Below, one piece after another: positions 22,701 through 55,589 of a stretch of DNA of 64,000 nt (positions are counted from its first letter, which is position 1; each line of letters begins with the position of its first letter). The translations under genes and the position numbers were made by a program. The notes below the pieces were generated by a model. The model did no database searches, was not told the DNA's origin, and saw only the letters and a list, made by a program, of their open reading frames with translations. This DNA is from Planctomycetota bacterium (GTDB lineage: Bacteria > Planctomycetota > B15-G4): contig CBDFJQ010000002.1 in the NCBI GenBank assembly GCA_965248575.1, positions 3,202,153 through 3,266,152 of the forward strand. Reading direction: 5' to 3'.

Positions 22701-22881
22701 GACCGCAGCTCAGGAGCGCTTCTTCAAGCTGGATCGCTTCCCGGTCGTCGTCGAAGCCTTGGAACTCGCCGCGGCAGGTGACAAGGCTGGCGCCATCGCA
22801 CGCCTGAAGCAGGGCGAGGACGAGGAGCAGACGGACCGCACGGACGCCCTGGCCCGACTGGCTGATGTGCTCGGGGGGTAG
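19765..22881 (+). CDS. multi-pass membrane GT-C-type glycosyltransferase-like domain fused to a long TPR-repeat domain (TMTC/PMT-like architecture)
   Basis: 1038 aa. The N-terminal ~430 aa contain about 10 hydrophobic helices, with an early acidic-loop motif LVYDDWFLID. The C-terminal ~600 aa are TPR-like helical repeats (FQLGTLYYNLGRFNAAVTQLETSLQYDPNF and similar). Confidence 0.75.
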   Translation: MTLTPSPSTGASSTEPTGGTALPALLVSLVALILYLPTLGHELVYDDWFLIDPGQNASMQGVNDDFGVALNLFTEEYWEGVNPSGVEELKNRGQALYRPLTTFIWGTLSFLFKYENATQAVPYHLANLLANVWVVYLLFQVIVRLFGSVRLAVLGSLLFALHPLHSEAVAYVAGLSDLISTVAVLLGLLFWLRATDNPAKLKLGPYVGLLATMFIGLLGKEGAVLVLAVVGLTDVMLTLRGRVTSMSQRIATYGGMLAVMAANIALRFAVIGYIKPSSNAIGTLDNVLINVDTGVRVANAFKLLAKYVWLVLWPKDLSVDYSKSVIDVSPGWASPGPLAGIILITVMVLLGLAKLRSSPAFGWGLLFFVGCATFVSNMFVPIGTVMAERLMYLPSIGLCLAAATILNRLLAPSETASGAKAGAGGGLNPVGLLLCVLILGGAGMRTYSRNADFHDPITLFEAAEQVVPESARVHFQLGTLYYNLGRFNAAVTQLETSLQYDPNFVRAAIQLGDVHSGDQNWERAIETYGLILKSVDGVDADPGDLAALQDMVLTKRAEAHRRSGNLEAALADVQRAVGLSSAGSVADRQLVSMLQGQQRWEDSIPVIRNALALAPDDSQMLFDLCRAAANTGDQELYNDSLAQLKETPDGRALGLVMEAVTLYAQALTNKNEALRAKAMDKFEQAIELDDSMATPYAFRGRYMAERSQFLHDAVTEYDRALERDPLHHMALGLKATALTQLGEFEAALDTLAILETVNPNPDLLILKAEAYFGLGELQELEEIRDQLRELGRDPIELLLNTAITYDAQGDTERALDLINQAFVDPEAAQNPEVWRHLGVLSLNAKKFEEALAAFVQQEATTLTNIELQGPFPYIPLNKAKSFLGLQRDVEAAAELERAEAILQGLDQQGPLWRLLRADILLTRADLFMAPGSLLFDAEQAELLCQEGMEHTNNQYPPFHDRSIEALLRADNTAEALARATAAQERFFKLDRFPVVVEALELAAAGDKAGAIARLKQGEDEEQTDRTDALARLADVLGG

Positions 22882-23130
22882 GCGGGCAGAGCGAACGCAG
22901 GCTTGCTGGATGTAGACCTGCCCTCATCGGTGGACTTCTTGCGAGAAGCGTCCGGCTCGTAGGTACTCGGGATTCACACGAAACCGCGAGTCCGTGGAAT
23001 CAGCCTTGCCGGTGTGACGAGTACGATCCGCCTTGTGGGAGTCTTGCGCTTCGTGGGCACGAAGGCGCGTCGGGCTGATGAAACCTCCCAATCCCCCGCC
23101 GACTCACGAGTCAGCGGTCTCCAGCGATGA

Positions 23131-23235
23131 GTGGGAGGCAGATTTTCGGGACGCAGATCTGAGGCGAGTTTTCGAGGCGTCTGTTTGCCTCGCTGTCTGA
23201 GCAGCAGATCTAAGTCCCGAAAATCTGCCTCTCAC
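23131..23235 (+). repeat. 105-nt palindromic intergenic element, copy A (31-nt arm / 43-nt conserved core / 31-nt arm)
   Basis: Left arm is GTGGGAGGCAGATTTTCGGGACGCAGATCTG. Core is AGGCGAGTTTTCGAGGCGTCTGTTTGCCTCGCTGTCTGAGCAG. The distal 22 nt of the arms pair with a single G:T and the core-proximal 7 nt pair perfectly, with a 2-nt internal mismatch between them. The core contains a 6-bp hairpin, CGAGGC/GCCTCG. It lies between the convergent gene ends at 22881 and 23253. Confidence 0.85.
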
Positions 23236-23252
23236 GGCATACGCCCTGCAGC

Positions 23253-23774
23253 CTAGCTGCCCTCGGAATCGGGGGCCGTGATCTCCACGATCACGTCGCC
23301 CTGCTCCACCGTGGTACCCGTCTCGCCGTGGATGGCTCCGACCACCCCATCCAGCTCGGCTTTGACCTCGTTCTCCATCTTCATGGCTTCGAGGATGAAG
23401 AGCACCTGGCCGGCGGTCACCTCGTCGCCAGGGCGGACACGCATCTCGCGCAGGATGCCGGTCATGACGGCTCGAACGGACGCATCACCGCCCTCGTTTT
23501 CCTCACGGATGGAGCGCGCGAGGAATTCCCGCTCGCCCAGCACCTCGGTCGCGTAACGACTGCCGCCGATGAGCAGGTCGAGGCGGTCGCCATTCTCTTC
23601 GGCACCGATGTCCACCGAACGGCCATTCATCACGAGCGAATAGGCACGGCCATCCACGAGCGTTGCCACATCGATGTGCCGGGAGTCGTCGGTGATGGTG
23701 GCTCGCACCCCGGCGCCGTCGGCTTGCACGTCCACTTCATAGTGCTCGCCTGCCACCAGCACGTGGTACTTCAT
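23253..23774 (-). CDS. biotin carboxyl carrier (biotinyl-domain) subunit of an acyl-CoA carboxylase
   Basis: The C-terminal biotinyl domain carries the EAMKMENEV motif (LFILEAMKMENEVKAELDGVV). Its start at 23772-23774 overlaps the accC stop in an ATGA. Confidence 0.85.
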   Translation of the reverse strand: MKYHVLVAGEHYEVDVQADGAGVRATITDDSRHIDVATLVDGRAYSLVMNGRSVDIGAEENGDRLDLLIGGSRYATEVLGEREFLARSIREENEGGDASVRAVMTGILREMRVRPGDEVTAGQVLFILEAMKMENEVKAELDGVVGAIHGETGTTVEQGDVIVEITAPDSEGS

Positions 23775-25327: not shown

Positions 25328-25582
25328 CCGTCGCCTGTCGCGGGGGGGGGGGAGTGGGAGTTTGTGGACCGGGAAAGCTGGAACAGCCCTCAGCCTCCTG
25401 ACAAGCCGGGGATCATAGCAACGGCCTCCCTGCCGCGAGAATCCTCCCTCTCCCAGGGGCGAGACCGGCGCCCCCGAGCGGGTGCCGGGGGGCGGAGTTC
25501 CAGAAGTTCCGCAGCTGAGGGATTGACGTGGCGAGCCCCGCTCGCAGGATTCTCTGGACCAACACCCATCGAGCGTCCCCCG

Positions 25583-26890
25583 ATGTCCGACTCCTCCACC
25601 GCCCCACACCCCTCGCCCCGCGACCACGCCCCCTCGGTCTTCCGGGACGTGCCCTACATGGGTGTGATCTTCGTCGTCGCCGAAGCCATGAAGCGCGGCT
25701 TCACCAACGGTCACCCCGATTGGTGCAACCTGGGCCAGGGCCAGCCCGAAGTGGGCGAGATGGCCGGCTCACCCCCGCGCATCTCCCACGTGGACCTGGC
25801 GCCGGAAGACCACGCCTACGGCCCGATTGAAGGCACGCCTGAGCTGCGCTCCGCGGTTGCCGACTACTACAACCGGCTCTTCCGGGTCGGCAAGGCGAGC
25901 CAGTACGGCCCCGAGAATGTCGCCATCGCCCAAGGGGGCCGGCTCGCCCTCTCCCGGGCCCTCGCGGCCGTCGGCCCCACCATCGTGGGCTACCAGCTGC
26001 CTGACTACACCGCCTACGAGGACATGCTCGACCTGCATCTGGCGCGCATCACTCCCATCCCTCTGCGCGCCTCCGAGTCGAACGGGTTCGCCCTCACCCG
26101 CACAGAGTTCGAGTCGGCTGTCCAAGACCAAGGGCTCGGCGCACTCATCCTCAGCAACCCCTGCAACCCGACCGGCAAGGTGATCGCCGGTGACGAGCTC
26201 AAGGGCTTCCTGAATGTGGGCCGCGCGGGTGGCTGCACCATGTTGATGGACGAGTTCTACAGCCACTTCATCTACGAGCAGGGCGCCGACGGTCAGTTTG
26301 TTCCCGGCGCTGGCCCCGTGAGCTCTGCGGCATACATCGACGACGTCGAGCAGGACCAGGTGCTCATCTTCGATGGCTTGACAAAGAACCACCGCTACCC
26401 GGGCTGGCGCATCGGCTGGGTGCTCGGCCCCTCTGAAGTCATCAACACCATGGGCCGCGTGGGCAGCGCCATGGATGGCGGCCCCAGCCGGCTGGCACAG
26501 CGCGCCGCCCTCCAGGCCTTGGTGCCAGAGGTTGCGGACCAGGAGACGACGGCGCTGCGCGAAGTCTTCACCGCGAAGCGCAACCTGATGGTGGAGCGCC
26601 TGAGCGCCATGGGCGTGCGCTTCGCAGAAACACCGGAGTCGACCTTCTACGCCTGGGGCTGCCTCGACCAGCTTCCAGCACCGTTCAACGACGCCATGTC
26701 CTTCTTCTGGGCCGCTCTTGAGCAGAAGGTGATGACGGTGCCAGGCAAGTTCTTCGACGTGAACCCCGGCAAGCGCCGCAGCGCCGAGTCGCCCTACACC
26801 CAGTGGATGCGCTTCAGCTTCGGCCCGCCCATGGACAACATGGTGCTCGGCCTCGACCGTCTTGAGGCCATGCTGGCAGCTGCTCGCTAG
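25583..26890 (+). CDS. pyridoxal-phosphate-dependent aminotransferase (class I/II)
   Basis: Motifs: YGPIEGTPELRSAVADYY, LILSNPCNPTGKV, LMDEFYSHFIY, FDGLTKNHRYPGWRIGW (the Lys in the SxxK-equivalent position), and RFSFG. Start is the ATG at 25583 (MSDSST..). Confidence 0.85.
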   Translation: MSDSSTAPHPSPRDHAPSVFRDVPYMGVIFVVAEAMKRGFTNGHPDWCNLGQGQPEVGEMAGSPPRISHVDLAPEDHAYGPIEGTPELRSAVADYYNRLFRVGKASQYGPENVAIAQGGRLALSRALAAVGPTIVGYQLPDYTAYEDMLDLHLARITPIPLRASESNGFALTRTEFESAVQDQGLGALILSNPCNPTGKVIAGDELKGFLNVGRAGGCTMLMDEFYSHFIYEQGADGQFVPGAGPVSSAAYIDDVEQDQVLIFDGLTKNHRYPGWRIGWVLGPSEVINTMGRVGSAMDGGPSRLAQRAALQALVPEVADQETTALREVFTAKRNLMVERLSAMGVRFAETPESTFYAWGCLDQLPAPFNDAMSFFWAALEQKVMTVPGKFFDVNPGKRRSAESPYTQWMRFSFGPPMDNMVLGLDRLEAMLAAAR

Positions 26891-27396
26891 CGCGTCAGGA
26901 CCGGCAGGAACTCGACCCAGGGCCCCACCTCCTGGCCCCAGCGGCGGGCCATGACCCGCGAGATCTGGGCCAGGTGGCCCAGGTCGTGCACGACCCAGGT
27001 GGCCAGCAGTTCCGAGAGCTTCACGCGCCCGAAGGCCGGGTGCGTACCCGTGCGTTCCATTTGGGCGGCATCCAGCTGGAGCGCGGCGAGGCTCGCCAGG
27101 CTCACCCGACGCAGCTCGCTGAAGTGTCGCAAGAGGACCTCCACGTCTTCGCCTTCGAACTGATCGAGATGGGCGCTTCGATCGAAGGGCTCAAAGGGTT
27201 TCTGCTCGCCGTGCTCCAGCAGGCGCACCACCCGAGGGACCCAGTCGGTTTGCTCGCCGTGGACCAGGTGGCCCAGCACCTCAAAGGGGCTCCAGGCCTC
27301 GGCAATCTCCCGGGTGTGCAGCCATTCGGGTGCAAGGCCGCTCAGCTGGGCGGCCAGGACCTTCGGCGTCCGGGACAGGATCTCAAGGTGTTCCAT
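26887..27396 (-). CDS. DinB family (DinB_2-like) metal-dependent protein
   Basis: 169 aa. The four-helix pattern has conserved His residues (EVLGHLVHGEQTDW, VVHDLGHLAQI), typical of the DinB superfamily. Confidence 0.7.
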   Translation of the reverse strand: MEHLEILSRTPKVLAAQLSGLAPEWLHTREIAEAWSPFEVLGHLVHGEQTDWVPRVVRLLEHGEQKPFEPFDRSAHLDQFEGEDVEVLLRHFSELRRVSLASLAALQLDAAQMERTGTHPAFGRVKLSELLATWVVHDLGHLAQISRVMARRWGQEVGPWVEFLPVLTR

Positions 27397-27453
27397 GATC
27401 GGTCTCCTGTCAGGAACGTCCGAAGGCAGGGGCAGGACGCGGGACGACGACTC

Positions 27454-28992
27454 CTACAGCGGGATGTTGCCGTGCTTCTTGGGCGGGTTTCGGTCGCGCT
27501 TGGTTTCCAGGAGGCGCAAGCCGGCGATCAGCTTGGCGCGCGTCTGCCGGGGCTCGATCACCGCATCGATGTAGCCGCGGGACGCTGCTTCATAGGGGTT
27601 CGCAAAATTCGCCTCGTACTCGGCCACCAGGCGATCCATCTCCGCCTGCTTGTCCTCCGCGCCTGCGATCTGCTTGCGGAAGATGATCTCCACCGCGCCC
27701 TTGGCCCCCATCACCGCGATCTCGGCCTGGGGCCATGCCAGGTTCAGGTCGCCCCGGATGTGCTTGCTGCTCATCACGTCGTAGGCACCGCCATAGGCCT
27801 TGCGGCAAATGACCGTGAGCTTGGGCACCGTGGCCTCGCAGTAGGCGTACAGCAGCTTCGCCCCGTGGCGGATGATGCCGCCATACTCCTGGGCGGTGCC
27901 CGGCAGGAACCCCGGCACATCCTCGAAGGTCACGAGGGGGATGTTGAAGGCGTCGCAGAAACGGATGAAGCGAGCGCCCTTGTCGCTGCTGTCGATGTCG
28001 AGCACCCCTGCCAGCACCATGGGGTTGTTGCCGATGATGCCGACGCTGCGACCGTCCAGCCGCGCAAACCCAACGGTCAGATTGCCCGCGAAGTCCGGCT
28101 GCACCTCCAGGAACTCGCCGTCGTCCACCACACGCGTGATCACTTCGCGGATGTCATAGGGCTTGTTGGGGTTCTCGGGCACCAGCGTGTCGAGCGCCTC
28201 ATCGGCCCGCGAAGCCTCATCGTGGCAGGCCACGCGCGGCGGATCCTCGCGGTTGTTCAACGGCAGGTAGCTCATCAGCCGGCGCAGCAACGCCAGGCAG
28301 TCGGCGTCGTTGTCCGCCCGGAAATGTGCCACGCCGCTCTTGCGGGTGTGGGTCCGCGCGCCGCCCAACTCTTCGCTCGTGACCTCTTCGTGGGTCACGG
28401 TCTTCACCACGTTGGGGCCCGTCACGAACATGTAGGAGCTGCCTTCGACCATCACGATGAAGTCCGTGATGGCCGGGCTGTACACCGCCCCGCCTGCGCA
28501 TGGCCCCATGATGGCCGAGAGCTGGGGGATGACGCCGGAGGCCAGGGTGTTCTGCAGGAAGATGTCCGCGTAGCCGCCCAGGGAAACGACGCCCTCCTGG
28601 ATGCGCGCGCCGCCGCTGTCGTTCAAACCCAGCACGGGCACGCCCACCTTCAGCGCCTTCTCCAGGAGCGCCACGATCTTCTGTGCGTGGGCCTCGCCCA
28701 AGCTGCCACCGCTGATGGTGAAGTCCTGACTGAACACCGCCGCCGGGCGGCCATCGATGGTGCCGAAGCCCGTGATCACGCCGTCGGTGAGGTGGGGCTT
28801 CGTGCCGAAGGCCGTGATGTCTCCGCGAATCAGCTGGCCGTACTCCTCGAAGGAGCCTTCATCCAGCAACAGATCCAGGCGCTCTCGCGCCGTGAGCTTC
28901 CCCTTCTCGTGTTGCGCGGCGACCCGCTTCTCACCACCCCCGGCCAAGGCCTCCTCGGTGCGGCGGCGAAGGTCTTCGAGACGGTCAGACAT
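27454..28992 (-). CDS. pccB: propionyl-CoA carboxylase beta chain / methylmalonyl-CoA carboxyltransferase
   Basis: Begins [50 protein letters not shown]. Other motifs are [48 protein letters not shown] and [11 protein letters not shown]. Confidence 0.95.
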
Positions 28993-29192
28993 GACGAACT
29001 CCAGGTGGCGCTGCGGAACCGCGCCCCTTCCATGGAACGCATGGTCAGGGTGCGAGTGGGTCGGGCCCATGGATCCGCGAAAGGGCGGGATTATAGGTGT
29101 GCGTCCCTCGTGATCGGAAGCGATCAGTCCCCAGCCGTTTCTGTGGACCAGGCCGCGTGGCGCAATCCCGCTCCACACCGCACAATCCCTGC

Positions 29193-30779
29193 ATGCCTGC
29201 CCCCTCCGCCGTGCCCACCTGCCTGCTCCTGCTCGCTCTTGGCCTGCTTGAGGTCCCTGAATCGGGCGGGGAAAGCCCCCCCGACCCCAAGGCGGGCTTC
29301 GCCCTGATCCAGGAGGACGACCTGCAGGGCGACCTCGAGATCCTGGCGGCTCCGGCCCTCGAAGGGCGGGACTCACCGAGCCTTGGCCTCACCCTCGCCG
29401 CCGAGTACATCGTTTCGCGCCTGCAAGCGGTGGGCTTCAAGCCGGCCCCCGGTTCGGAGAGTTTCCTGTCAGCGTTCTCGCGCGATCTTCCGAGCCCCGA
29501 GATCGAAGCCTGCTCGCTGTCGCTGACGAACGCAGAGGGAAACGAGACACCCTTCATCTACGGCGAGCACTTCGTGCCGGTCTGGAAGGCGGACGGGCAG
29601 GCAAGCGGCGAGCTCGTGGTGCTGGGCTTCGGCATCGATTCCGACTCTGACAAGTACGACGACATCACAGGCAAACTGTCGGGCAAGGTCGCCGTGATCC
29701 TCAGCGGCGAGCCGCGCCATCGGAAGAAGTTCGAGGGGCCTGATGTCACCGACGCGGCCGACCTCTACAGCAAGCTCCGCTCCTTGAAGAGCGCCGGACT
29801 CTCCGGCGTGCTCGTCGTACGTCGGCCGGTGGGCCACGAAGCAGGAGTCAACGGCGAGCCCATCCCCCAGCCGGAACGGCTCGGCTTCCGCCACACCTGG
29901 GCGACGTGGATCAACGAGCGCACCAAGAACACACGTGACGTGGGTCTGCCCGTGCTGGAGATCTCACCGGAGGTCGCAGAACAACTCACGGGCGTGGACC
30001 TGCTCGCGCGCGCCGCCGTGGTGGACAAGAAGGCCAAGCCGCCCAAGCCCATCTTCACGGAGCGTTCGGTGAGCATGAGCAGCGCTTCGGTCATGCGCAG
30101 CACGCCCATCGACAACGTCGTGGCCGTGCTTCCAGGCAGCGATCCAGGACTAGCCGATGAGTACATCGTGCTCGGCGCGCACTACGACCACATCGGCGTC
30201 GACACCCGGGGCCGGATCGGCTACGGCGCCGACGACAACGCCTCGGGCGTGGCAGCCCTGCTCGAAATCGCAGAGGCTCTCGCCAAGAACCCGCCCCGCC
30301 GCTCGATCATGGCCTGTGCCTTTGCCGCGGAGGAGGACGGCCTGGTGGGTAGCAAGGCCCTCTGCAGCAACCCACCGATTCCACGCGAGAAGATGGTGGC
30401 CATGCTGAACATGGACATGCTTGGCCGCGGCAAGGAAAAGGAAGTGGCGGTGCTGGGCGTGAACGAGAACCCCGGCTTCGAGAAGTTGCTCGAAAAAGCC
30501 CGCAAACAGCTGCCTACCAAGATCAAGAACATCGTGACCGGCCAGGGCCAGGAGCTCTTCGAGCGCAGCGACCACTTCCCGTTCCATGAGATCGGCGTGC
30601 CGGTGCTCTTCTTCTTCGAAGGCCTTCCTATCAGCAAGAACGAGGACTATCACACCTGGCGAGACACCCTCGACGAGGTCGATGTCGACAAGATCGCCAA
30701 GACGGCGCGGCTGGTGTTCAGCACGGCGTGGATGCTGGCCAACGACGACGAACGCCCCCCCAAGCCGCGCGGCAAATAG
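29193..30779 (+). CDS. M28 family metallopeptidase with an inserted PA domain
   Basis: It has a signal peptide. Zinc-ligand motifs are [45 protein letters not shown] and [12 protein letters not shown]. Confidence 0.85.
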
Positions 30780-30895
30780 CGGCGGCCACCACGCAACCCG
30801 AACTACGCCCGTCGGTTTGACAGCGCGACGGCGCGGAGCTTGCACTCGAGCCAGTACCCCGAGCGCCCGACCGACGCGGCCCTCGAGATGAAGTC

Positions 30896-32713
30896 GTGAA
30901 CCCTTGGACAGAATCCGTCTGCGCCCAGCGCGCGCGGCCCGCAGCACACCCACGGCTCTGGCTGGGCCTCTTGAGCGCCCTCGCCCTACTCGGCGCCTGC
31001 GCCCCGGCGGAAGCAGCGCCCCCCCTGCCAGAACCGGCATCGCCAATCACCAACTGGAGCGAGCTGGAACCCAAGAGTTCCCGAGTGAGCACGGTCGTCA
31101 TCTTCCCAACCCACGCTCAGCTGACTCGCACGCTTCAGGTCGAAGCCCAGGCCGGTGAGAATCGGCTGCTCTTCGGCGGTCTCGTACCAAACCTCGATCC
31201 CCAAACCTTGCGAGCCAGCGTGAGCGAGGGCGCCCGGGTCACCGGAACGGAGATCAAGACACTCCACTTGGAACAGTCGAGCACCGAACAGATCGCAGAC
31301 CTCGATCAGGCCATCCAGGATCTCGAGGACACTCTCACGGAGCGCGCCATGCAAGAAACGCGCGTCCAAGAACGCGCCGCTTTCTATCGCTCCGTGAAGG
31401 GCCGCCTTGCCAGCGACATGGAAGCCCAGTTCGTCGGCGGCAGCATTCCCGTGACCAGCTGGAGCGAGGTCCTGGGGTTCGTGGGCGACGGCCTCGCTGG
31501 GTGTGACAAGGAACTCGTCGAGATCGGACTTGAGCGGCGCTCCCTGCTCGGCCGACGGGACGCAGCCAGAGCGGAGCGCCAGGGCTACGCAGGGCTCGAA
31601 GCTCACACGGAGAAGCAGGTGGCCGTCACCTTCCAGGCCGAACAAGCGGGGCCCATGACCGTGAACGTGCACTACATGGTGTCGGACGTCATCTGGAAGC
31701 CCAGCTACGACGTGCACCTGGATCGCGCCACGGGCGCACTCGAAATCATCGGCTACGGACACATCAAGCAGTGGACAGGTGAGTCCTGGACGGATGTCGA
31801 TCTCTCGTTGGCGATGAGCCGACCGGATCACCAACTCGCACTGCCAGCCCTCACGCCCCTCGTCGCCAGTCTCGATCAGACCGCGCTCAGGAAGCTCGCC
31901 AAGGAGGCCTCCTTCCTCGGCCTCTCGAAGGGCCAGGCCGCCCAAAAATGGGCGGCCGGCCGGTTCGCCGGACGCCAGGACCGGGAGACCTTCCGACGCA
32001 ATCTCGAACAACTCGCGCGCTTGCCTCGGGATCGAATGACGGCCTTGGGCCTCAGCCCGGAGATTCTCGAGGAAGCCCTGTCTCACCTCATCAACCGCTT
32101 CTCTGGTGTTCGCTACCAGATTGCGCAGCGCGCCACGATTCCCTTCGACAGCTCGCCCCACAAGGTCGTGACCTTCGCGGCCCGTGTCCCTGCTCAGCTG
32201 CGCTACGTCGCCACACCCGCCCTCGGCGACACGGTCATGCTTCAGGCAGTGGCCACCAACTCCACGGGACACCCGATGCTGGCAGGCACGGCAGCGCTCT
32301 ATGTGGATGGCGCCTACGCGGGAGCCTCCGAACTCGGCGGCGCAGCACAGAACGAAGGCATCTCCTTCAGCTTCGGCCCCGACGACGCGCTGGTGGTGAA
32401 ACGCCGGCTGATCTCCCGAAGCGTCAAAGGCCCCGAAGCCTTCAGGCAATCACAGGTCCTGACGTACCACTACGCCATCACCGTCGAAAACTTCAACGAC
32501 CGGGACGTCGAAGTCCACGTCGTCGATCAGATCCCCATCAGCAAGACCGCCGAGATCCAGGTGAGCTTCCTGAACTCCACAGAACCCCACACCCTCTACC
32601 CAGAAACCGGCGCCCTCATCTGGAACCTCTCCATGCCCGCCGGCAAACGAACCGAAGTCGACTACTCGTTCAGCGTGGAATGCCCCATAGGCCAAGACGT
32701 CCACTGGCAATGA
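30896..32713 (+). CDS. DUF4140/DUF4139 domain protein (mucoidy-inhibitor MuiA-like family)
   Basis: 605 aa with a GTG start and a signal peptide. The N-terminus (VVIFPTHAQLTRTLQVEAQAGENRLLFGGLVPNLDPQTLRASV) is followed by a coiled coil, then a C-terminal part with YDVHLD and AHVVDQIPIS-type motifs. This is the architecture I recall for that family. Confidence 0.7.
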   Translation: MNPWTESVCAQRARPAAHPRLWLGLLSALALLGACAPAEAAPPLPEPASPITNWSELEPKSSRVSTVVIFPTHAQLTRTLQVEAQAGENRLLFGGLVPNLDPQTLRASVSEGARVTGTEIKTLHLEQSSTEQIADLDQAIQDLEDTLTERAMQETRVQERAAFYRSVKGRLASDMEAQFVGGSIPVTSWSEVLGFVGDGLAGCDKELVEIGLERRSLLGRRDAARAERQGYAGLEAHTEKQVAVTFQAEQAGPMTVNVHYMVSDVIWKPSYDVHLDRATGALEIIGYGHIKQWTGESWTDVDLSLAMSRPDHQLALPALTPLVASLDQTALRKLAKEASFLGLSKGQAAQKWAAGRFAGRQDRETFRRNLEQLARLPRDRMTALGLSPEILEEALSHLINRFSGVRYQIAQRATIPFDSSPHKVVTFAARVPAQLRYVATPALGDTVMLQAVATNSTGHPMLAGTAALYVDGAYAGASELGGAAQNEGISFSFGPDDALVVKRRLISRSVKGPEAFRQSQVLTYHYAITVENFNDRDVEVHVVDQIPISKTAEIQVSFLNSTEPHTLYPETGALIWNLSMPAGKRTEVDYSFSVECPIGQDVHWQ

Positions 32714-32754
32714 CCCTCACTGCTCGCCGACCGGCGGGGTAGGTCCACCGAGGA

Positions 32755-32859
32755 GGGGAGCCCTGAGGGCCGGGCACCTGGTCTGAAGCGAGTTTTGGAG
32801 GCATCAGCTCGCCTCCTTGTCTGAGCAGCAGACCAGGTGCCCGGCCCTCAGGGCTCCCC
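32755..32859 (+). repeat. 105-nt palindromic intergenic element, copy B (perfect 31-bp stem)
   Basis: Left arm is GGGGAGCCCTGAGGGCCGGGCACCTGGTCTG. Core is AAGCGAGTTTTGGAGGCATCAGCTCGCCTCCTTGTCTGAGCAG. The right arm is the exact reverse complement of the left. The core hairpin GGAGGC/GCCTCC carries a compensatory C-G to G-C change relative to copies A and C. It lies between the convergent gene ends at 32713 and 32868. Confidence 0.9.
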
Positions 32860-32867
32860 GGCCGCGT

Positions 32868-33092
32868 CTACCCCTGCCGATACTGCTCGCCAATGCCATC
32901 CACGAAGAACTCCACGCGCCCACACTCCGGGCAGACATAGACGTCAAACTTCTCGCGGTTGGTGAACAGCTCACCCAGTTCACCCAATGCGCCCCAACGC
33001 GTGCCTTCGTGAAACTTCTTGGTGCCCACGAAATCGAGAGCGCGCTCGCAACGGGGGCAACGCAGGGGGCTGTCGGGGTCTGGGCTCACCAT
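32868..33092 (-). CDS. small zinc-ribbon protein (74 aa)
   Basis: Sequence is MVSPDPDSPLRCPRCERALDFVGTKKFHEG...DVYVCPECGRVEFF, with two CxxC pairs. The longer 129-aa ORF includes an unlikely N-terminal extension. Confidence 0.55.
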   Translation of the reverse strand: MVSPDPDSPLRCPRCERALDFVGTKKFHEGTRWGALGELGELFTNREKFDVYVCPECGRVEFFVDGIGEQYRQG

Positions 33093-33150
33093 GGCTTCAT
33101 GTCCTTCGGGTCTTCGACTCTCGTCATCTTGCGCGAACTGGCCTGATCCG

Positions 33151-33567
33151 TCAGTGCGCGTCTTGGGCCTGGACCAGCTCCACGAGCACGCCGCCGGTGG
33201 ATGCCGGATGGACGAAGGCCACTGTCGTCCCGTGCGCACCTGACCGGGGTTTTTCATCGATCAGGCGTACGCCTGCCTCACGCATGCGCTCCAGCATATC
33301 GGCAATGTCGTCCACTTCGAAAGCGACGTGGTGCAGGCCCGGGCCGCGCTTCGCCAGGAACTTGCCCACGGGGTTCTCGCCCTCGTCGGGCTGCAGCAGC
33401 TCCACCGCCCCGGAACCGGCACCGAGGCGCAGCATGGCGACGGAGACACCATCGCTCGCCACGTGCTCGATGTGCTCCACGGGCAAGCCGAGCAGATCAC
33501 GCCAGAATTCCAGCACGGCTTCGTGAGCAGGGACCGCAACGCCGAAGTGGGACAGACGAGTCGCCAT
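33151..33567 (-). CDS. mce: methylmalonyl-CoA epimerase (VOC/glyoxalase fold)
   Basis: Motifs: LSHFGVAV, VAMLRLGAGSGAVELLQP, PVGKFLAKRGPGLHHVAFEVDDI, VAFVHPASTGGVLVELVQ. It lies 9 nt downstream of the mutase gene. Confidence 0.85.
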   Translation of the reverse strand: MATRLSHFGVAVPAHEAVLEFWRDLLGLPVEHIEHVASDGVSVAMLRLGAGSGAVELLQPDEGENPVGKFLAKRGPGLHHVAFEVDDIADMLERMREAGVRLIDEKPRSGAHGTTVAFVHPASTGGVLVELVQAQDAH

Positions 33568-33575
33568 GGGTCTTC

Positions 33576-35219
33576 TCAGAAGATGGACACGGGGGCGTGC
33601 TTGCCGAACACGCCTTCGAACTGGCCGCATACCTCGCCCACCGTCGCACCTGCTTCGACGGCTTCAAGAATGAGGGGCATCAGGTTCTGCTCGCCCTTGG
33701 CGGCATCCCGCAAGGCCAAGAGCGCGGCGTCGCAAGCGGAGCCGTCCCGGGCAGATCGCCAGGCGGCCAACTCTTCGCTGCGGCGCTCACCCAGCTGGTC
33801 GTCGACCTTCAGCAGGGGTTGCACGGCCTCCTCATCCACCGTGTAGCAGTTGACGCCCACGATGCGGCGCTCGCCCTCTTCGACGCATCGCTGGTGTTCG
33901 TAGGCAGCGCGATGGATCTGCTGCTGTTGGTAGCCCTCCTCCACGGCCCCCAGGGCCCCGCCCCGCTTGTCGACCTCGGCGATCAACTCACGCGCCTCGG
34001 CTTCGACGCGATCGGTCAAGGCCTCCACGAAGGGTGAGCCGCCCAGTGGGTCGATGGTGTGGGTGACGCCGCTCTCCTCGGCGATCACTTGTTGGGTCCG
34101 CAAGGCCAAGAGGGCTGCATCCGCCGTGGGCAAGCTCAAGGCCTCGTCACGGCTGTTGGTGTGCAGTGACTGCGTCCCACCCATCACGGCCGCCAGGGCC
34201 TGCAAGGTCACGCGCACGACGTTCACATCCGGCTGCTGGCTGGTGAGGGTCGAGCCTGCGGTCTGCGTATGGAAGCGCAAGCGCATGGCCGAGTCCTGCT
34301 TGGCTCCGAAGCGCTCCTTGAGCATCGTGGCCCACATTCGACGCGCCGCCCGGAACTTGGCCACCTCTTCGAAGAAGTCGTTGTGGGCGTTGAAGAAGAA
34401 GGACAACTGGCCCGCGAAGGCGTCCACGTCGAGCCCCCGATCCACGGCGCACTGCACATACTGCAAGCCATTCGCCAAGGTGAACGCCAGCTCCTGGGGC
34501 GCCGTGCAACCCGCCTCGCGCATGTGATAGCCGCTGATGGAGATCGGGTTGAAGCGCGGCAGTTCCTTGTTGCAGTACTCGATGACATCCGTCACCAGAC
34601 GCAGGGACGGGCCGGGCGGGAAACGGAAAGTGCCGCGAGCGATGTACTCCTTCAGCAGGTCGTTCTGCAGCGTCCCTCTCAGCTTCCCGGGGTCCACTCC
34701 CTGCCTGCGGGCCGCGGCCACCAGGAACGCCAGCAGCACCGGCGCGGTGGAGTTGATGGTCATGGAGACGCTGACATCGCCCAGCGGGATGCCCTGGAAC
34801 AAGGCCTCGAAATCACCCAGGCAGGCCACGGACACACCCACCTTGCCCACCTCCCCGGCGGCCAGATCAGCATCCGGGTCGTGGCCCATCTGGGTCGGCA
34901 GATCGAAGGCCACGCTCAGGCCGGTCTGCCCGCGATCGAGCAGGAAGCGGAAACGCGCGTTGGTCTCCTCAGCCGTGGAGAAGCCGGAGTACTGGCGCAT
35001 GGTCCACGAACGCCCGCGATACATGGACGGGTAGGGCCCGCGCGTGAAGGGGAATGCTCCAGGCATGCCCAGACCGTCGCCCGCCTCCGTTGGCACATAG
35101 AGCGGGTCGATCTCCAGGCCCGACGGCGTCCGCACCTCTCGTGGCGCGCCACTCGGGAGCGAGGGGCTGTAGGAATCCTTCAACCAGTTCTGCAGCGCCT
35201 CGGGATCAGTGTCGGTCAT
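33576..35219 (-). CDS. methylmalonyl-CoA mutase, catalytic (N-terminal) subunit without a B12-binding domain
   Basis: Motifs: FPFTRGPYPSMYRGRSWTMRQYSGFSTAEETNARFRFLLDRGQTGLSVAFDLPTQMGHD, INSTAPVLLA, ISISGYHMREAG, FFFNAHNDFFEEVAKFRAARRMWA. At 547 aa it ends before the position where the cobalamin-binding domain occurs in fused enzymes. Confidence 0.9.
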   Translation of the reverse strand: MTDTDPEALQNWLKDSYSPSLPSGAPREVRTPSGLEIDPLYVPTEAGDGLGMPGAFPFTRGPYPSMYRGRSWTMRQYSGFSTAEETNARFRFLLDRGQTGLSVAFDLPTQMGHDPDADLAAGEVGKVGVSVACLGDFEALFQGIPLGDVSVSMTINSTAPVLLAFLVAAARRQGVDPGKLRGTLQNDLLKEYIARGTFRFPPGPSLRLVTDVIEYCNKELPRFNPISISGYHMREAGCTAPQELAFTLANGLQYVQCAVDRGLDVDAFAGQLSFFFNAHNDFFEEVAKFRAARRMWATMLKERFGAKQDSAMRLRFHTQTAGSTLTSQQPDVNVVRVTLQALAAVMGGTQSLHTNSRDEALSLPTADAALLALRTQQVIAEESGVTHTIDPLGGSPFVEALTDRVEAEARELIAEVDKRGGALGAVEEGYQQQQIHRAAYEHQRCVEEGERRIVGVNCYTVDEEAVQPLLKVDDQLGERRSEELAAWRSARDGSACDAALLALRDAAKGEQNLMPLILEAVEAGATVGEVCGQFEGVFGKHAPVSIF

Positions 35220-35285
35220 GGGAACGCGCCTTCGTGTTGTGTGTCCGGCTGCCGCGCAGCGAGGGCAGCGCTCGGGCGTGAGAGC

Positions 35286-36305
35286 TCAGGCCTCTGCCGC
35301 GGCCTCTTCCAGAATCTCCACGAGCTCCGCCATGTCGGGCGGCAGCGGGGATTCGAACTGAACGTCTTGCCCCGTGCCCGGGTGCTCGAAAGCCAGGGTG
35401 CGAGCGTGCAGGGCCTGGCGCGCTATCGAGGGCGCCCGCTTGCCTTGCTCGGCGCGCTTCGCCACCCAGCGCCGCCAGGACTCCTGCTGGGTGACGCCGT
35501 AGTTCGGGTCGACGAGGATGGGGAAACCCAGGTGGTCCAGGTGCACCCGGATCTGATGCGTGCGCCCGGTGCGCGGCGAGACATCCAGGATGCTCGCCAC
35601 TCCGAGCCGCGCCTTCACCTCGTAGAAGGTCGAAGCGGCTTGCCCGCCTTCGCTCACCACGGCCCTGCGTTGCGGCTTCTTCGGGTGCACCCCCAACGGC
35701 AAGTCGATCCAGTCGCTGTCGAAGGGCATCTCGCCCCAAACCACGGCGCTGTACTGTTTGCGCACCTTCTTGGCCTTGAACTGGTTCACCAACGACTTGG
35801 CGGCGTCGTTGGTGCGCGCCACGACCATGACCCCCGTGGTCTGCCGGTCGAGCCGGTGCACGATGCCGGGCCGGTCCGCTCGACCCACCACGGCGAGCTC
35901 CGGATAGAGCTTCAGCAGGCCGTTGACCATGGTGCCGGTGGAGGCTCCGCTGCCCGGATGAATCACCAGACCCTCCGGCTTGTCCACCAGGATCACGGAT
36001 TCGTCCTCGTGAAGAATCTTCAGGCCCAGCTCCTCGGCCTCGGGCAGCCCGGTGGCCGCCACGCCCAATTCCCCCGCGATGACCATGCCCTCCATGACCC
36101 GAAGGGAGCCGCGGACCTCCTGCCCGTCGACCCGGATGGCACCCTCAGCGAGCAAGGCTGAGAGGTAGGAACGGGAGTAGTGAGGGGCCAATGCACGCCC
36201 CAGGGCCCGATCCACGCGCGATCCCGCCTGCTCGGCGGTCACCTCCAGGCGGAGGTGGCCCGTCTCATCGACGGACGTTGGGCGGGCCTGTTCAGCGGGA
36301 TCCAT
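35286..36305 (-). CDS. rluD: RluA-family 23S rRNA pseudouridine synthase (RluD-like)
   Basis: It has an N-terminal S4 domain (RVDRALGRALAPHYSRSYLSALLAEGAIRVDG). The catalytic motif is GIVHRLDRQTTGVMVVART. QIRVH is present. Confidence 0.9.
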   Translation of the reverse strand: MDPAEQARPTSVDETGHLRLEVTAEQAGSRVDRALGRALAPHYSRSYLSALLAEGAIRVDGQEVRGSLRVMEGMVIAGELGVAATGLPEAEELGLKILHEDESVILVDKPEGLVIHPGSGASTGTMVNGLLKLYPELAVVGRADRPGIVHRLDRQTTGVMVVARTNDAAKSLVNQFKAKKVRKQYSAVVWGEMPFDSDWIDLPLGVHPKKPQRRAVVSEGGQAASTFYEVKARLGVASILDVSPRTGRTHQIRVHLDHLGFPILVDPNYGVTQQESWRRWVAKRAEQGKRAPSIARQALHARTLAFEHPGTGQDVQFESPLPPDMAELVEILEEAAAEA

Positions 36306-36345
36306 GGGTGGGTGCCAGGTGAGGGAGTACAGAATTCCGGTCAGG

Positions 36346-36373
36346 TTGACAGTCTAGAGGCCTCTGTTACAGT
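36346..36373 (+). promoter_or_regulatory. candidate sigma70-type promoter (TTGACA - 16 nt - TACAGT) with an embedded palindrome
   Basis: A perfect -35 hexamer TTGACA lies at 36346-36351 and a -10-like TACAGT at 36368-36373. The spacer contains the palindrome AGAGGCCTCT. ACAGTCT occurs twice as a direct repeat, and AGTCTAG/CTAGACT form an inverted repeat reaching to about 36390. Confidence 0.4.
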
Positions 36374-36398
36374 CTCGCGGCCGCTAGACTACATTCAT

Positions 36399-36437
36399 GG
36401 AACCGGTTGGTTGTGTCCGACCGGGTCCGTTTTTTTT
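36399..36437 (+). terminator. intrinsic-terminator-like hairpin followed by a T8 tract
   Basis: GGAACCGGT (36399-36407) pairs with ACCGGGTCC (36420-36428), giving 8 of 9 pairs around a 12-nt loop. One G follows, then TTTTTTTT at 36430-36437. A T8 run is very unusual in this GC-rich window. Confidence 0.45.
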
Positions 36438-36546
36438 AGCAGGCTTCAGGTTTTTCAGGCCCTTATCACACGCCCCCGAAGGCGCCGATAAGACGCATGA
36501 GGAACAGCACCCCCGAGCGTCCCCGCCCCGAGGAGCCCAGCCCCAC

Positions 36547-38199
36547 GTGCTAGCCCCCCTCGCAGGTTTTCTTTCTGTGTTCGTTTGCGCCTCTGCTTGC
36601 GTCGTTGGCCAAGCAGCGCGCGCGCTTCCCAAAGCACAGAACGCACATGCACAACACGCCTCCCGGGCGCCCGTTCGCAGCGACCTCCAGAAAGAGGTCC
36701 GGCTGAACAGCGACCCGAACAATCCGGAGGCGCCCTACGGCATGGTGCTCATTCCGGCAGGCGACGTGATCATGGGCACCGACCCGGACCTGGTCCCCAA
36801 GCTGGGCCAGAACTTCCAGGCGCAGATGACTGAGATCGCTGCGGAAACGCCGCGCCACACGCGCGAGGTCGACCAGTTCTTCATCGACGCCAACGAGGTC
36901 ACGAACCTGCAGTGGAAGGTCTACCTGGACGCCACCGGCCGCGAACCATCTTCGGTGCTCGTCACCAACGGCTGGCCCAACAGCAAGATCCCTGATGGAC
37001 AGGACTACTTCCCCATCACATTGGTGAGCCTGCCCGAGATCGAGGAGTTCCTGGCCTGGGCCGGCAAGCGCTTGCCGACCGAAGCCGAGTGGACCCGGGC
37101 AGCACGTGGCGACGACAGCCGCAGCTACCCCTGGGGCGACAAGTGGAACTCCAAGGTCGTGAGCTATGGCGGCCGTTCACCCGCGCTGCCTGTGAGCGTC
37201 GACGAGTTCGAGAAGGGCGCGAGCCCCTTCGGCGTCGTCAACATGGCGGGCAACGTCTGGGAATGGGTAGACACCAACTACACCCCCTTCAAGGGTTTCG
37301 AGCCGATCCCGTTCAAGCTGAGCAAGCGCGAGGTCGTGCCGCTGACGCCTGAGTTCGACTCTCGTCGCTACGTCATCAAGGGCGGCTGCTACGTCTCCAC
37401 CCGCGACATGTCGCGCATCGACTACCGCGTCAGCGTCGACCCCAATGACGCGGACGCCGGCCTCGGTTTCCGGACGGCACGCTCCGTGCACGCCGGCGCC
37501 GAAATCATCCGCAGTAGCTACCGCCGCCTGCTCCCCTCCGCCATCACCGGCGAGGACATGCTGGACAAGACCGACATCTTCGCCCAGGAGCGCGCCTCCT
37601 ACCTCGAGGGCAGCGACGGCCGTATCATTTCCGGCTTCCGCTACCTCGGCTTCGCCCACCCCAAGCCGCTTCGCCAAGCGGGCCTCTCACGCATACGCAA
37701 GTCCTCCAAGGACGAGCCGGTGACCCTGGGCCTGCTCACCACGAGCGAGCCCCTAGCTGAGCCACCGCTCCCGCCCGGTGACTACGTCGTCGCCTTCAAG
37801 GGGCGCGGCGAATCCAAGAAGCACAAGGAAGCACGGCGCAACAGGAGCAAGGACAAGAAGAAGGACGACGACGCGGAAGCCCCCCCCGCACCGCCCGCTC
37901 CCAATGGGGATAGCGGCAGTCTAGCTCCCTGGCCCTTCGCCGTGGACGACGTCGTCGAGGACATCGAGTTCGACCAGGACATGGATGTCTTCCTCTTCTA
38001 CAACGTCAACAACGCCGTGGTCGGCTGGACCCTCGCCGGTGAAATCACCGAATCCGCCTTCGCACCCGTGACGCACGAGGTGGATGCCGAGGGCAAGAAG
38101 TGGGACATCGCTTTCAGCCTCGACGTGGTCAGCAAGCGCGTCCCGCGCTTTACGCTTCCCATCAAGGTCGCGGGTCCTGGGCTCGGCACTCCTGACTGA
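36547..38199 (+). CDS. formylglycine-generating enzyme (SUMF1/FGE-sulfatase) domain protein with a ~220-aa C-terminal extension
   Basis: Motifs: MVLIPAGDVIMG, PRHTREVDQFFIDANEVTNLQW, LPTEAEWTRAARG, YPWGD, GVVNMAGNVWEWV, IKGGCYVS, GFRTARS. The start is uncertain. GTG at 36547 gives the signal-like VLAPLAGFLSVFVCASAC. The ATG at 36397 would include the hairpin/T8 region and AT-rich codons. Confidence 0.8.
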   Translation: MLAPLAGFLSVFVCASACVVGQAARALPKAQNAHAQHASRAPVRSDLQKEVRLNSDPNNPEAPYGMVLIPAGDVIMGTDPDLVPKLGQNFQAQMTEIAAETPRHTREVDQFFIDANEVTNLQWKVYLDATGREPSSVLVTNGWPNSKIPDGQDYFPITLVSLPEIEEFLAWAGKRLPTEAEWTRAARGDDSRSYPWGDKWNSKVVSYGGRSPALPVSVDEFEKGASPFGVVNMAGNVWEWVDTNYTPFKGFEPIPFKLSKREVVPLTPEFDSRRYVIKGGCYVSTRDMSRIDYRVSVDPNDADAGLGFRTARSVHAGAEIIRSSYRRLLPSAITGEDMLDKTDIFAQERASYLEGSDGRIISGFRYLGFAHPKPLRQAGLSRIRKSSKDEPVTLGLLTTSEPLAEPPLPPGDYVVAFKGRGESKKHKEARRNRSKDKKKDDDAEAPPAPPAPNGDSGSLAPWPFAVDDVVEDIEFDQDMDVFLFYNVNNAVVGWTLAGEITESAFAPVTHEVDAEGKKWDIAFSLDVVSKRVPRFTLPIKVAGPGLGTPD

Positions 38200-38213
38200 G
38201 CTCGGCTGAGGGC

Positions 38214-38318
38214 CGGGTCGTCCAGTTGAGGGACACTTGGCCTGCAGCTCAGACAACGAGGCGAACTGACGCCTCGAAAACTCGCCTCAGACCAAGTGTC
38301 CCTCAACAGGACGCCCCT
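38214..38318 (-). repeat. 105-nt palindromic intergenic element, copy C (core in inverted orientation relative to A and B)
   Basis: The reverse complement reads AGGGGCGTCCTGTTGAGGGACACTTGGTCTG / AGGCGAGTTTTCGAGGCGTCAGTTCGCCTCGTTGTCTGAGCTG / CAGGCCAAGTGTCCCTCAACTGGACGACCCG. The arms pair over about 26-30 bp with a few mismatches, one of which is G:U only on the minus strand. The element starts 15 nt after the stop at 38199. The 12-mer CTGAGGGCCGGG from copy B's arm recurs at 38206-38217. Confidence 0.85.
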
Positions 38319-38635
38319 CCTCGGTGGACAGGCGGCACCCGGGTCGAGACGCGAGCTTGCGTGCTCGCTCTTGGGGTAAGTGGGCGATGGCGCGACCTTC
38401 GACGGTCGTGACGCTAGGCGTCAAAGACATGTGAGGCGTCGAGACAAGCGAAGCACGACTCGTATTTCGCGCTCGATCCCACACAGCCGTTGGACCGCGA
38501 GCAGGAACGGAAGCCCACCGGTCGCGCCCGTCCCGACAGCATCCTTGATCTCTTGCCGGGTATCACCCCAGCAGGCCGGCGGGCGCGAGCGCTAGCATGG
38601 CGTGCTCCGCTAGCCGCTGAGCGGCCGATCCGTAG

Positions 38636-39691
38636 ATGGTCGAGATCATGAAGAGCCCGAATGCCATTGCAATACGTCAAGATCAGCGGAGGCGTGCCTC
38701 ACTGCGCTCTGCTCGGCCATGGCTTGAGGCTTTCGGGGTCTTGTCGCTGCTGTTGACAGCAACGACCGCCTGCGGGCCGCGCGCCCCGGAGTATGAGTGC
38801 CTTCGCCGGCTGGTTCAGCGCAGCGATCTCGTGGCCAGGGTGGAGGTAGAATGGGTCCACCCGGAAGGCCGGAACATGCGCGTGCACATCCTCGAGGTGC
38901 TGCGTGGTGAGGCGCCGGAGGACGGGAAATGCAAGGTGATCGTGCCGACCACTCAAAAGTCCGGCTGGCTAGACAGCCCAGTGAGCGCAAAACACATCCG
39001 CGAAGGTCGAGACCTTCTGCTGTTCTTGAAACGCCAGTCCAGCGGGCAATATCTGGTCGTTTCTCCGCCGATCAGGGAGTTCTCGTCACCCGAAGAGAGG
39101 GATGCTCAAGCCAAGCATGCTCGGCAGCTGTGCACCGTGCTTGAGATCGAAGACCCGGCGCAACGCGATCTCGCGATGACCTCCTGGCTCGTGAACTTGC
39201 TGGAGGACCCCTTTACAGCCTGGGAGGGCGTCAAGGACCTCATGATGACATCGTCGCAGCGGCGTTCAGGAGCCTACTGGATGCATCAGCGTGACCTTCT
39301 GGACAGGGACTACTTCGGTTTGATGGCAGACGAACAAATCGCGCGACTGGTGAACGTGCTGGGCGCACCGACACATTCGATTCACGAGCGCGGACGGCTA
39401 GCCCAGATCTTGCGCGATGTGAGAGACGAGCGCATCGATACCTGCCTCCGGGAACAGCTCCACGACATGGCCTTCGCGCGCAAGGGTGAGCCGGAGACGC
39501 ACGCACACTTTCCAGAAATGGGGTTTCCGCAGAATCTCTATTGGGACGCAGAGGAGCATATGGAGGTTCTCGTCTACCGCACGGGAAACGCTGCCTGTAT
39601 CGGCATTCTGGGTGACTACAAACGCCTGCCCTACGGCGATGAGCTCGGTCTGCCTCTCGTGAAGCAGTTCCTGGAAGCGCTTGATCACTGA
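38636..39691 (+). CDS. hypothetical protein (possible lipoprotein), ORFan in a lower-GC island
   Basis: 351-aa ORF with a hydrophobic segment and a Cys (FGVLSLLLTATTACGP). Codon third positions are visibly less GC-biased than in neighbouring genes. No family recognised. Confidence 0.55.
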   Translation: MVEIMKSPNAIAIRQDQRRRASLRSARPWLEAFGVLSLLLTATTACGPRAPEYECLRRLVQRSDLVARVEVEWVHPEGRNMRVHILEVLRGEAPEDGKCKVIVPTTQKSGWLDSPVSAKHIREGRDLLLFLKRQSSGQYLVVSPPIREFSSPEERDAQAKHARQLCTVLEIEDPAQRDLAMTSWLVNLLEDPFTAWEGVKDLMMTSSQRRSGAYWMHQRDLLDRDYFGLMADEQIARLVNVLGAPTHSIHERGRLAQILRDVRDERIDTCLREQLHDMAFARKGEPETHAHFPEMGFPQNLYWDAEEHMEVLVYRTGNAACIGILGDYKRLPYGDELGLPLVKQFLEALDH

Positions 39692-55437: not shown

Positions 55438-55589
55438 GAAGTGCAGACCCTCGGGGCGAGAATGGGCCCAACATCCTAGCGGAAGCGGGCCTCTCCGTGG
55501 GATGACGGCGCTGGACTCGCCACCGCCAGGCGAGCTGTCGGATCATGGCCCGGTTCACCGACCCCGCGTGGCGGCAAACAGCTCGGGGT

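Follow-up and report, generated by a model that had tools for sequence, protein, structure and literature searches.

Copy B and its setting

The gap between two convergent genes of this planctomycete contains a palindrome with perfectly complementary arms, and the question raised by the locus is whether such an element serves as a bidirectional terminator or an mRNA 3'-end stabiliser, as an earlier note on this DNA had proposed, or belongs to another kind of sequence. The window (the whole stretch of 64,000 nt that was analysed) can be assigned to a planctomycete, its DUF4139 protein having 54-66% and its mutase 71-82% identity to the closest Planctomycetota MAGs. It also encodes DUF1579, and the relatives of the metagenome contig L009, which carries another copy of the element, have PSCyt2/PSD1 domains.

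Both gene ends reported for the locus, 32713 and 32868, are correct. The gene ending at 32713 (+) encodes a DUF4139/DUF4140 MuiA-like protein, and the gene ending at 32868 (-) encodes a 74-aa zinc-ribbon protein, the last of a methylmalonyl-CoA mutase/epimerase cluster. This zinc-ribbon gene (32868-33094, -) has two CxxC pairs and the conserved C-terminus DGIGE[EQ][FY]R; at least 193 homologues are found in metagenomes and MAGs of many phyla, most of them without a Pfam family. It follows the methylmalonyl-CoA mutase and epimerase genes in the window and in L042, the epimerase not being identified in L040.

The arms of the palindrome, here copy B, had been described as exact reverse complements, which is the case for 31/31 positions (32755-32785 against 32829-32859, with 43 nt between them). 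This inverted repeat is the longest and the sole perfect one in the 64-kb window, and its fold reaches -103.2 kcal/mol, compared with -60.3 ± 4 in shuffles (z against shuffled sequence: + strand -10.7, - strand -9.85). An unrelated palindrome of 68 nt (54278-54345), with no spacer and with 34-nt arms that are 79% complementary, is located at the start of the ORF 54280-55479. The element of copy B extends beyond the span first reported, with the 5' flank TCCACCGAGGA (32744-32754) and the 3' flank GGCC (from 32860), and its stem ends 8 nt from the zinc-ribbon stop codon (CTA, 32868-32870, in + strand letters). It is bracketed by a 12-bp outer helix, present in the predicted fold, and by a 10-nt direct repeat. 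The parts of copy B and the other copies in assembled planctomycete genomes are the following.

23111..23254, + strand: copy A; arms 23131-23161 and 23205-23235, 28/31 paired; arms plus core 23131-23235
32719..32728, + strand: left member of the 10-nt direct repeat ACTGCTCGCC; the right member, 32882-32891, is inside the zinc-ribbon gene
32732..32742, + strand: 5' strand of the outer helix, CGGCGGGGTAG, in copy B only; pairs with 32868-32879 (inverted-repeat search and predicted fold)
32744..32754, + strand: distal (5') flank of copy B, TCCACCGAGGA; family consensus CTCCACCGAGGA, directly before the stem
32755..32785, + strand: long stem P1 of copy B, 5' arm GGGGAGCCCTGAGGGCCGGGCACCTGGTCTG, 31 nt; complementarity 31/31, columns co-vary across copies
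32786..32796, + strand: 5' internal-loop strand of copy B, AAGCGAGTTTT, conserved
32797..32816, + strand: small tip hairpin of copy B, GGAGGC / loop ATCAGCTC / GCCTCC; the other 13 copies have C-G where copy B has G-C
32817..32828, + strand: 3' internal-loop strand of copy B, TTGTCTGAGCAG; no other segment of the family is as conserved
32829..32859, + strand: long stem P1' of copy B, 3' arm, 31/31 complementary to P1
32860..32867, + strand: proximal (3') flank of copy B, GGCCGCGT, between the stem and the zinc-ribbon stop codon
32868..32879, + strand: 3' strand of the outer helix, CTACCCCTGCCG, in copy B only; equals the zinc-ribbon codons R-Q-G-stop (- strand)
38195..38340, - strand: copy C; arms 38215-38244 and 38288-38317, 27/30 paired; arms plus core 38215-38317
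L042:9357-9442 (- strand) and L042:9815-9918 (+ strand): the copies of Planctomycetota MAG DHS20C15 (BQJR01000002.1), with perfect stems of 23 bp and 29 bp

Because the zinc-ribbon homologues end in GE[EQ][FY]R.., the 3' strand of the outer helix is native coding sequence. A clean insertion of copy B with ACTGCTCGCC as a 10-bp target duplication was rejected on these grounds, and the inverted copy of the native codons on the far side of the element may come from palindrome extension by template switching or from chance. An empty site for copy B was also sought in relatives and discarded, the DUF4139/zinc-ribbon junction not being syntenic in L040, L042 and the Logan and JGI relatives.

The compensatory double substitution described in the core hairpin is real, with GGAGGC/GCCTCC in copy B and CGAGGC/GCCTCG in copies A and C. 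The unpaired strands flanking this hairpin had been called invariant; this holds for GCGAGTTTT, identical in the three copies, but TGTCTGAGCAG is exact in A and B and reads TGTCTGAGCTG in C, a single change by which the word was slightly overstated.

A repeat family with a covarying stem and a conserved tip

The family was searched with the pattern CTGANGCGAGTTTT-N17-25-TGTCTGAGC, for which the number of chance matches expected in the window is zero. The exact pattern has no match in 185,579 GTDB species representatives and retrieved 11 metagenome contigs, of which nine are real and hold 11 copies, the matches in L002 and L007 being due to chance. A covariance model (R1) recovered only the three known copies in the window and two diverged copies in the GTDB loci, both in Planctomycetota bacterium DHS20C15 (L042), with E-values that are rough owing to a shortened calibration. 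A phage or provirus origin was rejected, since the 10 viral-contig matches to a looser pattern are all chance matches and the model matches none of them. The collection therefore comprises 16 copies, some with shared ancestry: three in the window, 11 on metagenome contigs and two in DHS20C15, the latter head-to-head, separated by ~350 nt, in the gap that runs from a gene's stop codon to the methylmalonyl-CoA mutase start. The copies adjoin unrelated housekeeping genes. Rfam at gathering thresholds gave 0 matches over the window, and permissive scans of copy B and L009 gave only generic long-hairpin (miRNA-precursor) matches, far below threshold. The family consists of scattered non-coding palindromic repeats of ~135 nt, with a long form of up to ~190 nt, is confined to a few Planctomycetota and has not been described before.

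Read 5' to 3' on the strand carrying GCGAGTTTT, the layout of the family includes the flank CTCCACCGAGGA, a stem of 23-31 bp, an 11-nt loop strand A-R-GCGAGTTTT, a hairpin of 6-7 bp with a 6-8-nt loop, the 12-nt loop strand TTGTCTGAGCAG, the return arm and the flank GGCAC(GAC), the proximal consensus being CCC followed by GGCAC(GAC). The 5' flank is kept in 12 of the 13 copies in which it is known and is replaced in L011, whose core is flipped. Several metagenome copies have, in addition, an outer helix of the CCACAGATCG type and the terminus ...GTGGCGCAG.

Among the 14 most similar copies, 98.2% of the stem cells pair in a model-based alignment, changes on both sides are found at 22/42 pairs, and 20/35 pairs of the long helix change. 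No column shuffle reached any of five covariation measures (0/500), and pairing falls to 40-45% in a control with slid partners; RNAalifold on an independent MAFFT alignment gave 22/45 pairs. Tip and core have 90-100% identity in the main family, whereas about half of the stem positions differ between copies of one genome. The swap seen in copy B thus generalises across the family, a further G-C to A-U swap being present in the tip hairpin of L008, and the proposal of a structured nucleic-acid element, with a constraint on pairing and conserved unpaired strands, was well founded. That covariation and conserved loops are the signature of an RNA does not follow, as the hairpins of REPINs, which are mobile DNA, evolve with the same compensatory pattern (PMC3116915).

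The 5' loop strand reads A[AG]GCGAGTTTT in 14 copies and AGGCGAGTTT and ACGTGAGTTCT in the two of DHS20C15, and the 3' loop segment TGTCTGAGC is unchanged in 16/16 copies. Its invariance in the 14 copies is partly a matter of ascertainment, because the search pattern specified it; the DHS20C15 copies were found independently with the model. The inner hairpins of these two copies (TGCGGCC/GGCCGCA and GCGGCGC/GCGACGC) are unrelated to those of the main family and the stem-closing pairs are also replaced, with A[GC]G[CT]GAGTT and TGTCTGAGC kept. Since the DHS20C15 copies keep the loop strands alone, these correspond to the sequence-specific part of the element and the helices to scaffolding. Hammerhead-like or K-turn-like loops were considered and rejected by eye, the consensus positions not fitting. 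Several strongly diverged copies pair without a mismatch or wobble along stems of 31, 29 and 23 bp, which suits DNA palindromes better than typical RNAs.

The non-Watson-Crick cells of the long stem are 18 G·T, three A·C and five others, and single columns run through U-A, U·G and C-G or through G-C, G·U and A-U (several hand-checked, in ungapped arms). The G·T positions of one strand are A·C mismatches on the complementary strand, and the excess of 18 over 3 indicates that one strand folds, namely the strand antisense to the neighbouring gene. When shared ancestry is allowed for, the numbers are perhaps 11-12 independent events against 3, and the asymmetry is suggestive, not overwhelming. The excess of C-to-T changes known for coding strands would act in the direction opposite to the G·T excess.

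Placement at stop codons and distribution among relatives

The 3' flank is known for 14 copies, and in 12 of them (A, B, C, L001, L003-, L004+, L005, L006, L008, L009, L010 and L042m), the 3' end is 0-80 nt (median ~24 nt) from the stop codon of the convergent gene, and the 5' side of the copies is 10-590 nt from whatever feature is there. L003+ and L042p depart from this rule: each is the second member of a head-to-head pair and has a co-directional gene downstream of it. Head-to-head pairs are found at L003, L004 and L042, three in all, and their interpretation as ends of composite elements was rejected, the three centres having no similarity. A, L001, L005, L009, L011 and L042m have the terminus C(T/G)GCAG at a distance of 1-5 nt from the stop codon. 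In copy A it reads CTGCAG, 1 nt from the biotin-carboxyl-carrier stop codon (23253-23255, - strand gene). The 3' end of copy C is 5 nt from the stop codon of an FGE-sulfatase gene (38197-38199, + strand gene), and the gene that follows this copy (38636..) is co-directional with the FGE-sulfatase gene.

The GC skew is negative across the whole window (-0.025 to -0.078 over 1-64000), which places the window on a single replichore, where the + strand is the C-rich one. Copies A and B are on the + strand and copy C is on the - strand; with both orientations under a uniform skew, orientation follows the adjoining gene and not the replichore. In L011:1-140 (- strand) the flanks keep their relation to the gene but enclose a stem and core of the opposite orientation: where other copies have their 5' flank, L011 has the usual 3' flank in reverse complement (46-nt alignment, score 52 vs 14), and GAGTCTGCGCCAC directly abuts the stop codon TAG of the gene for a succinate-dehydrogenase Fe-S subunit. 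A flipped core between flanks that keep their relation to the gene is as expected from recombination between the inverted arms.

The closest comparison of a filled with an unfilled locus is that of L009, where the element adjoins a fatty-acid hydroxylase gene, and L029, which has the orthologue (96% aa identity) without the element. Upstream synteny is kept, with an upstream gene 95% identical, and DNA identity of ~88% continues through the stop codon and two further bases (TGAGG), ending exactly at the start of the element. The downstream gene of L029 is a different one, so a rearrangement is possible and the event was not necessarily a clean insertion. Two small ordinary hairpins (CGCGCG..CGCGCG and GGGAC-ATG-GTCCC) follow the stop codon in L029:1435-1480. 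Hydroxylase orthologues at 84% and 82% aa identity (L030-L033) also have no element.

No copy was found in ~50 kb around the DUF4139 homologues, in ~64 kb around further hydroxylase homologues or, besides L042, in 1.13 Mb of GTDB loci, and ~1.3 Mb from relatives and other phyla contained none except those of DHS20C15. The contigs of homologues (58-96% identity) together with 64 GTDB loci contributed just the two DHS20C15 copies. Even close relatives differ in whether they carry the element, which is found at synteny breaks. The earlier note had named a lack of conservation at orthologous loci or elsewhere in the genome among the observations that would speak against its reading: the element is absent from the 96%-identical orthologous locus, and it is conserved elsewhere in the genome.

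The proposal of a bidirectional terminator is not supported. A G+C-rich hairpin between convergent genes resembles an intrinsic terminator; however, the family has neither a U-tract nor an A-tract, its stem is far longer than needed, and its internal loops are conserved. No U-tract follows the hairpin on either strand (the tails read CCCGGC... on one and CCTCCTCGGTGG... on the other), and a terminator scan calls none of the three copies of the window. The element is present at only 2 of ~11 convergent gene pairs of the window, the convergent setting fails for copy C and for the three head-to-head pairs, and the element is asymmetric, with an orientation fixed relative to one neighbour. No canonical promoter or terminator was found at the copies.

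Hairpin-plus-T-run sites resembling terminators number 10 in 22500-39000 (16.5 kb), against 9.0 expected from shuffles, and the organism may not rely on canonical intrinsic terminators. In the same 16.5 kb the sole sigma-70-like promoter match is at 36346-36373 (TTGACA and TACAGT, 16 nt apart, plus a TG extension), which shortly precedes the FGE-sulfatase gene (start 36397). The element may have a role as a 3'-end stabiliser, and any terminator or stabiliser role would probably be secondary.

Mobile repeat, 3'-end signal or recombination site

The nearly fixed tip, the co-varying stem and the position at stop codons make the family more like mobile DNA of the REP/REPIN type than like a terminator. 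Here it is proposed, with a probability of roughly 45%, that the family is a new REP/REPIN-like, probably mobile, structure-constrained repeat, the tip of which is a putative protein recognition site. The observed basis is the family itself, its structure with covariation, the strand asymmetry, the placement rule and the presence or absence between close relatives; from these we infer that the family is mobile, that a protein partner exists and what kind of molecule folds, with ssDNA favoured over RNA. The functional unit would be the single-stranded hairpin of one particular strand, with a tip formed by the loop strands GNGAGUU and UGUCUGAGC around the 6-7-bp hairpin, and this tip would be the sequence-specific recognition site of a trans-acting protein. 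The stem of 23-31 bp would need pairing only and would drift by compensatory change. New copies would arise by insertion or recombination directly downstream of stop codons, in the orientation set by that gene, and would then be carried in 3' UTRs, where the long hairpin could incidentally block exonucleases or transcription.

The family appears, by analogy, to behave like selfish or domesticated DNA of the REP/REPIN or MITE type. As in REPs, BIMEs and REPINs, the copies are short, non-coding, dispersed palindromes, often in opposed pairs, with a lineage-restricted and patchy distribution; the hairpin is kept by compensatory changes, and it is located downstream of ORFs near stop codons. REPs are found within ~20 bp of the 3' ends of ORFs, in the gaps of convergent or unidirectional genes, sometimes supplying the stop codon (PMC3733652). 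However, REPs have 20-40 bp and a GTAG or CGTC tag, whereas the family has no conserved tag: GTAG is present in copy B only, where TAG is the stop codon of the neighbour, and CGTC only in the proximal flanks of L001, L010 and L011. A REPIN has conserved arms, which are REPs, and a variable tip or spacer; the family shows the reverse, with a conserved, asymmetric tip and variable arms of 23-31 bp, and its polarity, unlike that of REPs and REPINs, is tied to the neighbouring gene.

The MITEs with which the family can be compared (Correia/NEMIS, ERIC/IRU, RUP, Nezha and RPE) are likewise non-autonomous long-hairpin repeats of 100-170 nt near gene ends, which are co-transcribed and in some cases influence the stability of mRNA or termination; they have conserved terminal inverted repeats and defined duplications (e.g., TA), neither of which is found in the family. 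The ends of the IS200/IS605 family, the PATEs and the SNRs of Deinococcus are also DNA hairpins of one strand without the usual terminal inverted repeats. However, IS200/IS605 elements have two different subterminal hairpins, in contrast to the one long hairpin of the family, and they orient with replication (lagging-strand template), whereas both orientations of the family are found on one replichore.

REPINs, which are doublets of REPs, are mobilised by RAYT (TnpA-REP), a Y1 HUH transposase encoded by a single-copy gene that the repeats usually flank. A Pfam scan of 17 window ORFs and nine metagenome ORFs gave no Y1_Tnp (the window covers 64 kb of a 5.29-Mb genome), and no transposase, recombinase or RAYT-like gene adjoins any copy or is present among the window ORFs tested. 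A search for direct repeats that flank 10 full copies revealed neither a consistent target-site duplication nor sharp ends, and no longer element (a parent IS) sharing the ends was found at the loci examined. An autonomous parent beside a copy was rejected, the ORF downstream of L003+ encoding a SulP transporter and the other neighbours being housekeeping genes. Against a mobile repeat there are, then, the lack of a transposase beside the copies, of a consistent duplication and of a strict filled/empty pair, together with the orientation set by the gene, which sets the family apart from IS200/IS605 ssDNA elements and suggests a process linked to transcription or RNA. The combination of an antisense folding strand with a gene-set placement is explained only in part.

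The strongest alternative, although on balance unlikely, is a cis-acting 3'-UTR RNA element in the mRNA sense, in which a protein-bound hairpin would process or stabilise the 3' end as do chloroplast 3' inverted repeats, the REP stabilisers of E. coli and the histone stem-loop, and which would have spread through its usefulness. A variant of it, a modulation of translation termination, is suggested by the start of the element 1-8 nt after the stop codon. The orientation defined by the flanks matches the adjacent gene in 13/15 copies independently of the replichore, the proximal end is 1-5 nt from the stop codon in the six copies with the C(T/G)GCAG terminus, and the chance-level frequency of canonical terminators means that another 3'-end signal might be needed. 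However, reading the element in the mRNA sense turns the wobbles into A·C mismatches (18 vs 3), the strand under pairing selection being the antisense one. Moreover, only a small minority of genes have the element (3 in 64 kb), the 96%-identical orthologue manages without it, and the flipped core of L011 indicates that either core orientation is tolerated with the flank context unchanged.

An RNA in the folding sense would agree with the G·U excess and the wobble intermediates, including the U·G of L042p at the internal-loop pair. Such an RNA would be a terminator or insulator for transcription running toward the 3' end of the neighbour, or a cis-antisense RNA, with the conserved tip binding an RNA-binding protein. 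Six copies (A, B, L001, L008, L009 and L011) are downstream of a co-directional gene, and the members of head-to-head pairs both point outward from the intergenic centre. This explanation is nevertheless improbable: no conserved promoter is present upstream and the upstream stop codon of copy B is just ~30 nt away, copy C and the pairs have no co-directional upstream gene, the U-tract is absent, and a selected RNA would not usually contain wobble-free duplexes of 29-31 bp, which would be substrates of RNase III.

A still more doubtful explanation is an ssDNA recombination site with the logic of integron attC sites, where a tyrosine or HUH recombinase would read the folded "bottom" strand and the elements would delimit gene-sized units subject to movement or rearrangement. 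The geometry is that of attC: an imperfect hairpin immediately 3' of an ORF, directly after its stop codon, with the folding strand antisense to that ORF, and read on one strand by its structure and a few fixed unpaired bases, the helix sequence being free. The synteny break of L009/L029 falls exactly at the element, and the gene pair of copy B is non-syntenic in the nearest relatives. However, this break is on the gene-proximal side, so that gene and element do not travel together. The R''/L''-L'/R' boxes (GTTRRRY) of attC are absent, the bases of the family hairpin reading ...GAGGA followed by GGG and CCC followed by GGCAC, and the conserved part of the family is the tip and not the base. 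Neither a cassette array nor a nearby intI or other integrase is present, and the copies of the window, at 23.1, 32.8 and 38.3 kb, are in mixed orientations 6-10 kb apart among multi-gene housekeeping operons.

Chance palindromes or ordinary gene-specific terminator hairpins, for which a convergent-gene gap is the expected location, can be set aside almost entirely, given a 43-nt core common to 14 copies at 90-100% identity beside unrelated genes on different contigs, a pattern with zero expected chance matches and a covariation far above controls.

Next to the preferred REP/REPIN-like mobile repeat, a broader possibility, unlikely but deserving attention, is that the element is the cis-acting site of a Planctomycetota system for mobility or recombination that has not been described, with attC-like logic and without integron architecture, or of a new protein-RNA 3'-end system. 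In such a system, a protein would read the asymmetric loop motif at the tip of the single-stranded hairpin and would place or keep the element a few nucleotides from stop codons, with an orientation according to the gene. Planctomycetota are poorly covered by catalogues of non-coding elements, the family is absent from Rfam, and the Planctomycetes repeats in the literature surveyed are GTAG/CGTC-tagged REP families only. Conserved unpaired nucleotides on a helix of free sequence are a pattern that nearly always marks a specific protein partner, and the family adds two unusual properties, a folding strand antisense to the gene that it abuts and an anchoring to stop codons whatever the direction of replication. 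For genome scans, the family is a caution that covariation, however strong, is not by itself enough to distinguish structured RNAs from mobile DNA that depends on hairpins; for the Planctomycetota that carry it, the partner protein would tell a new mode of moving DNA from a new 3'-end signal.
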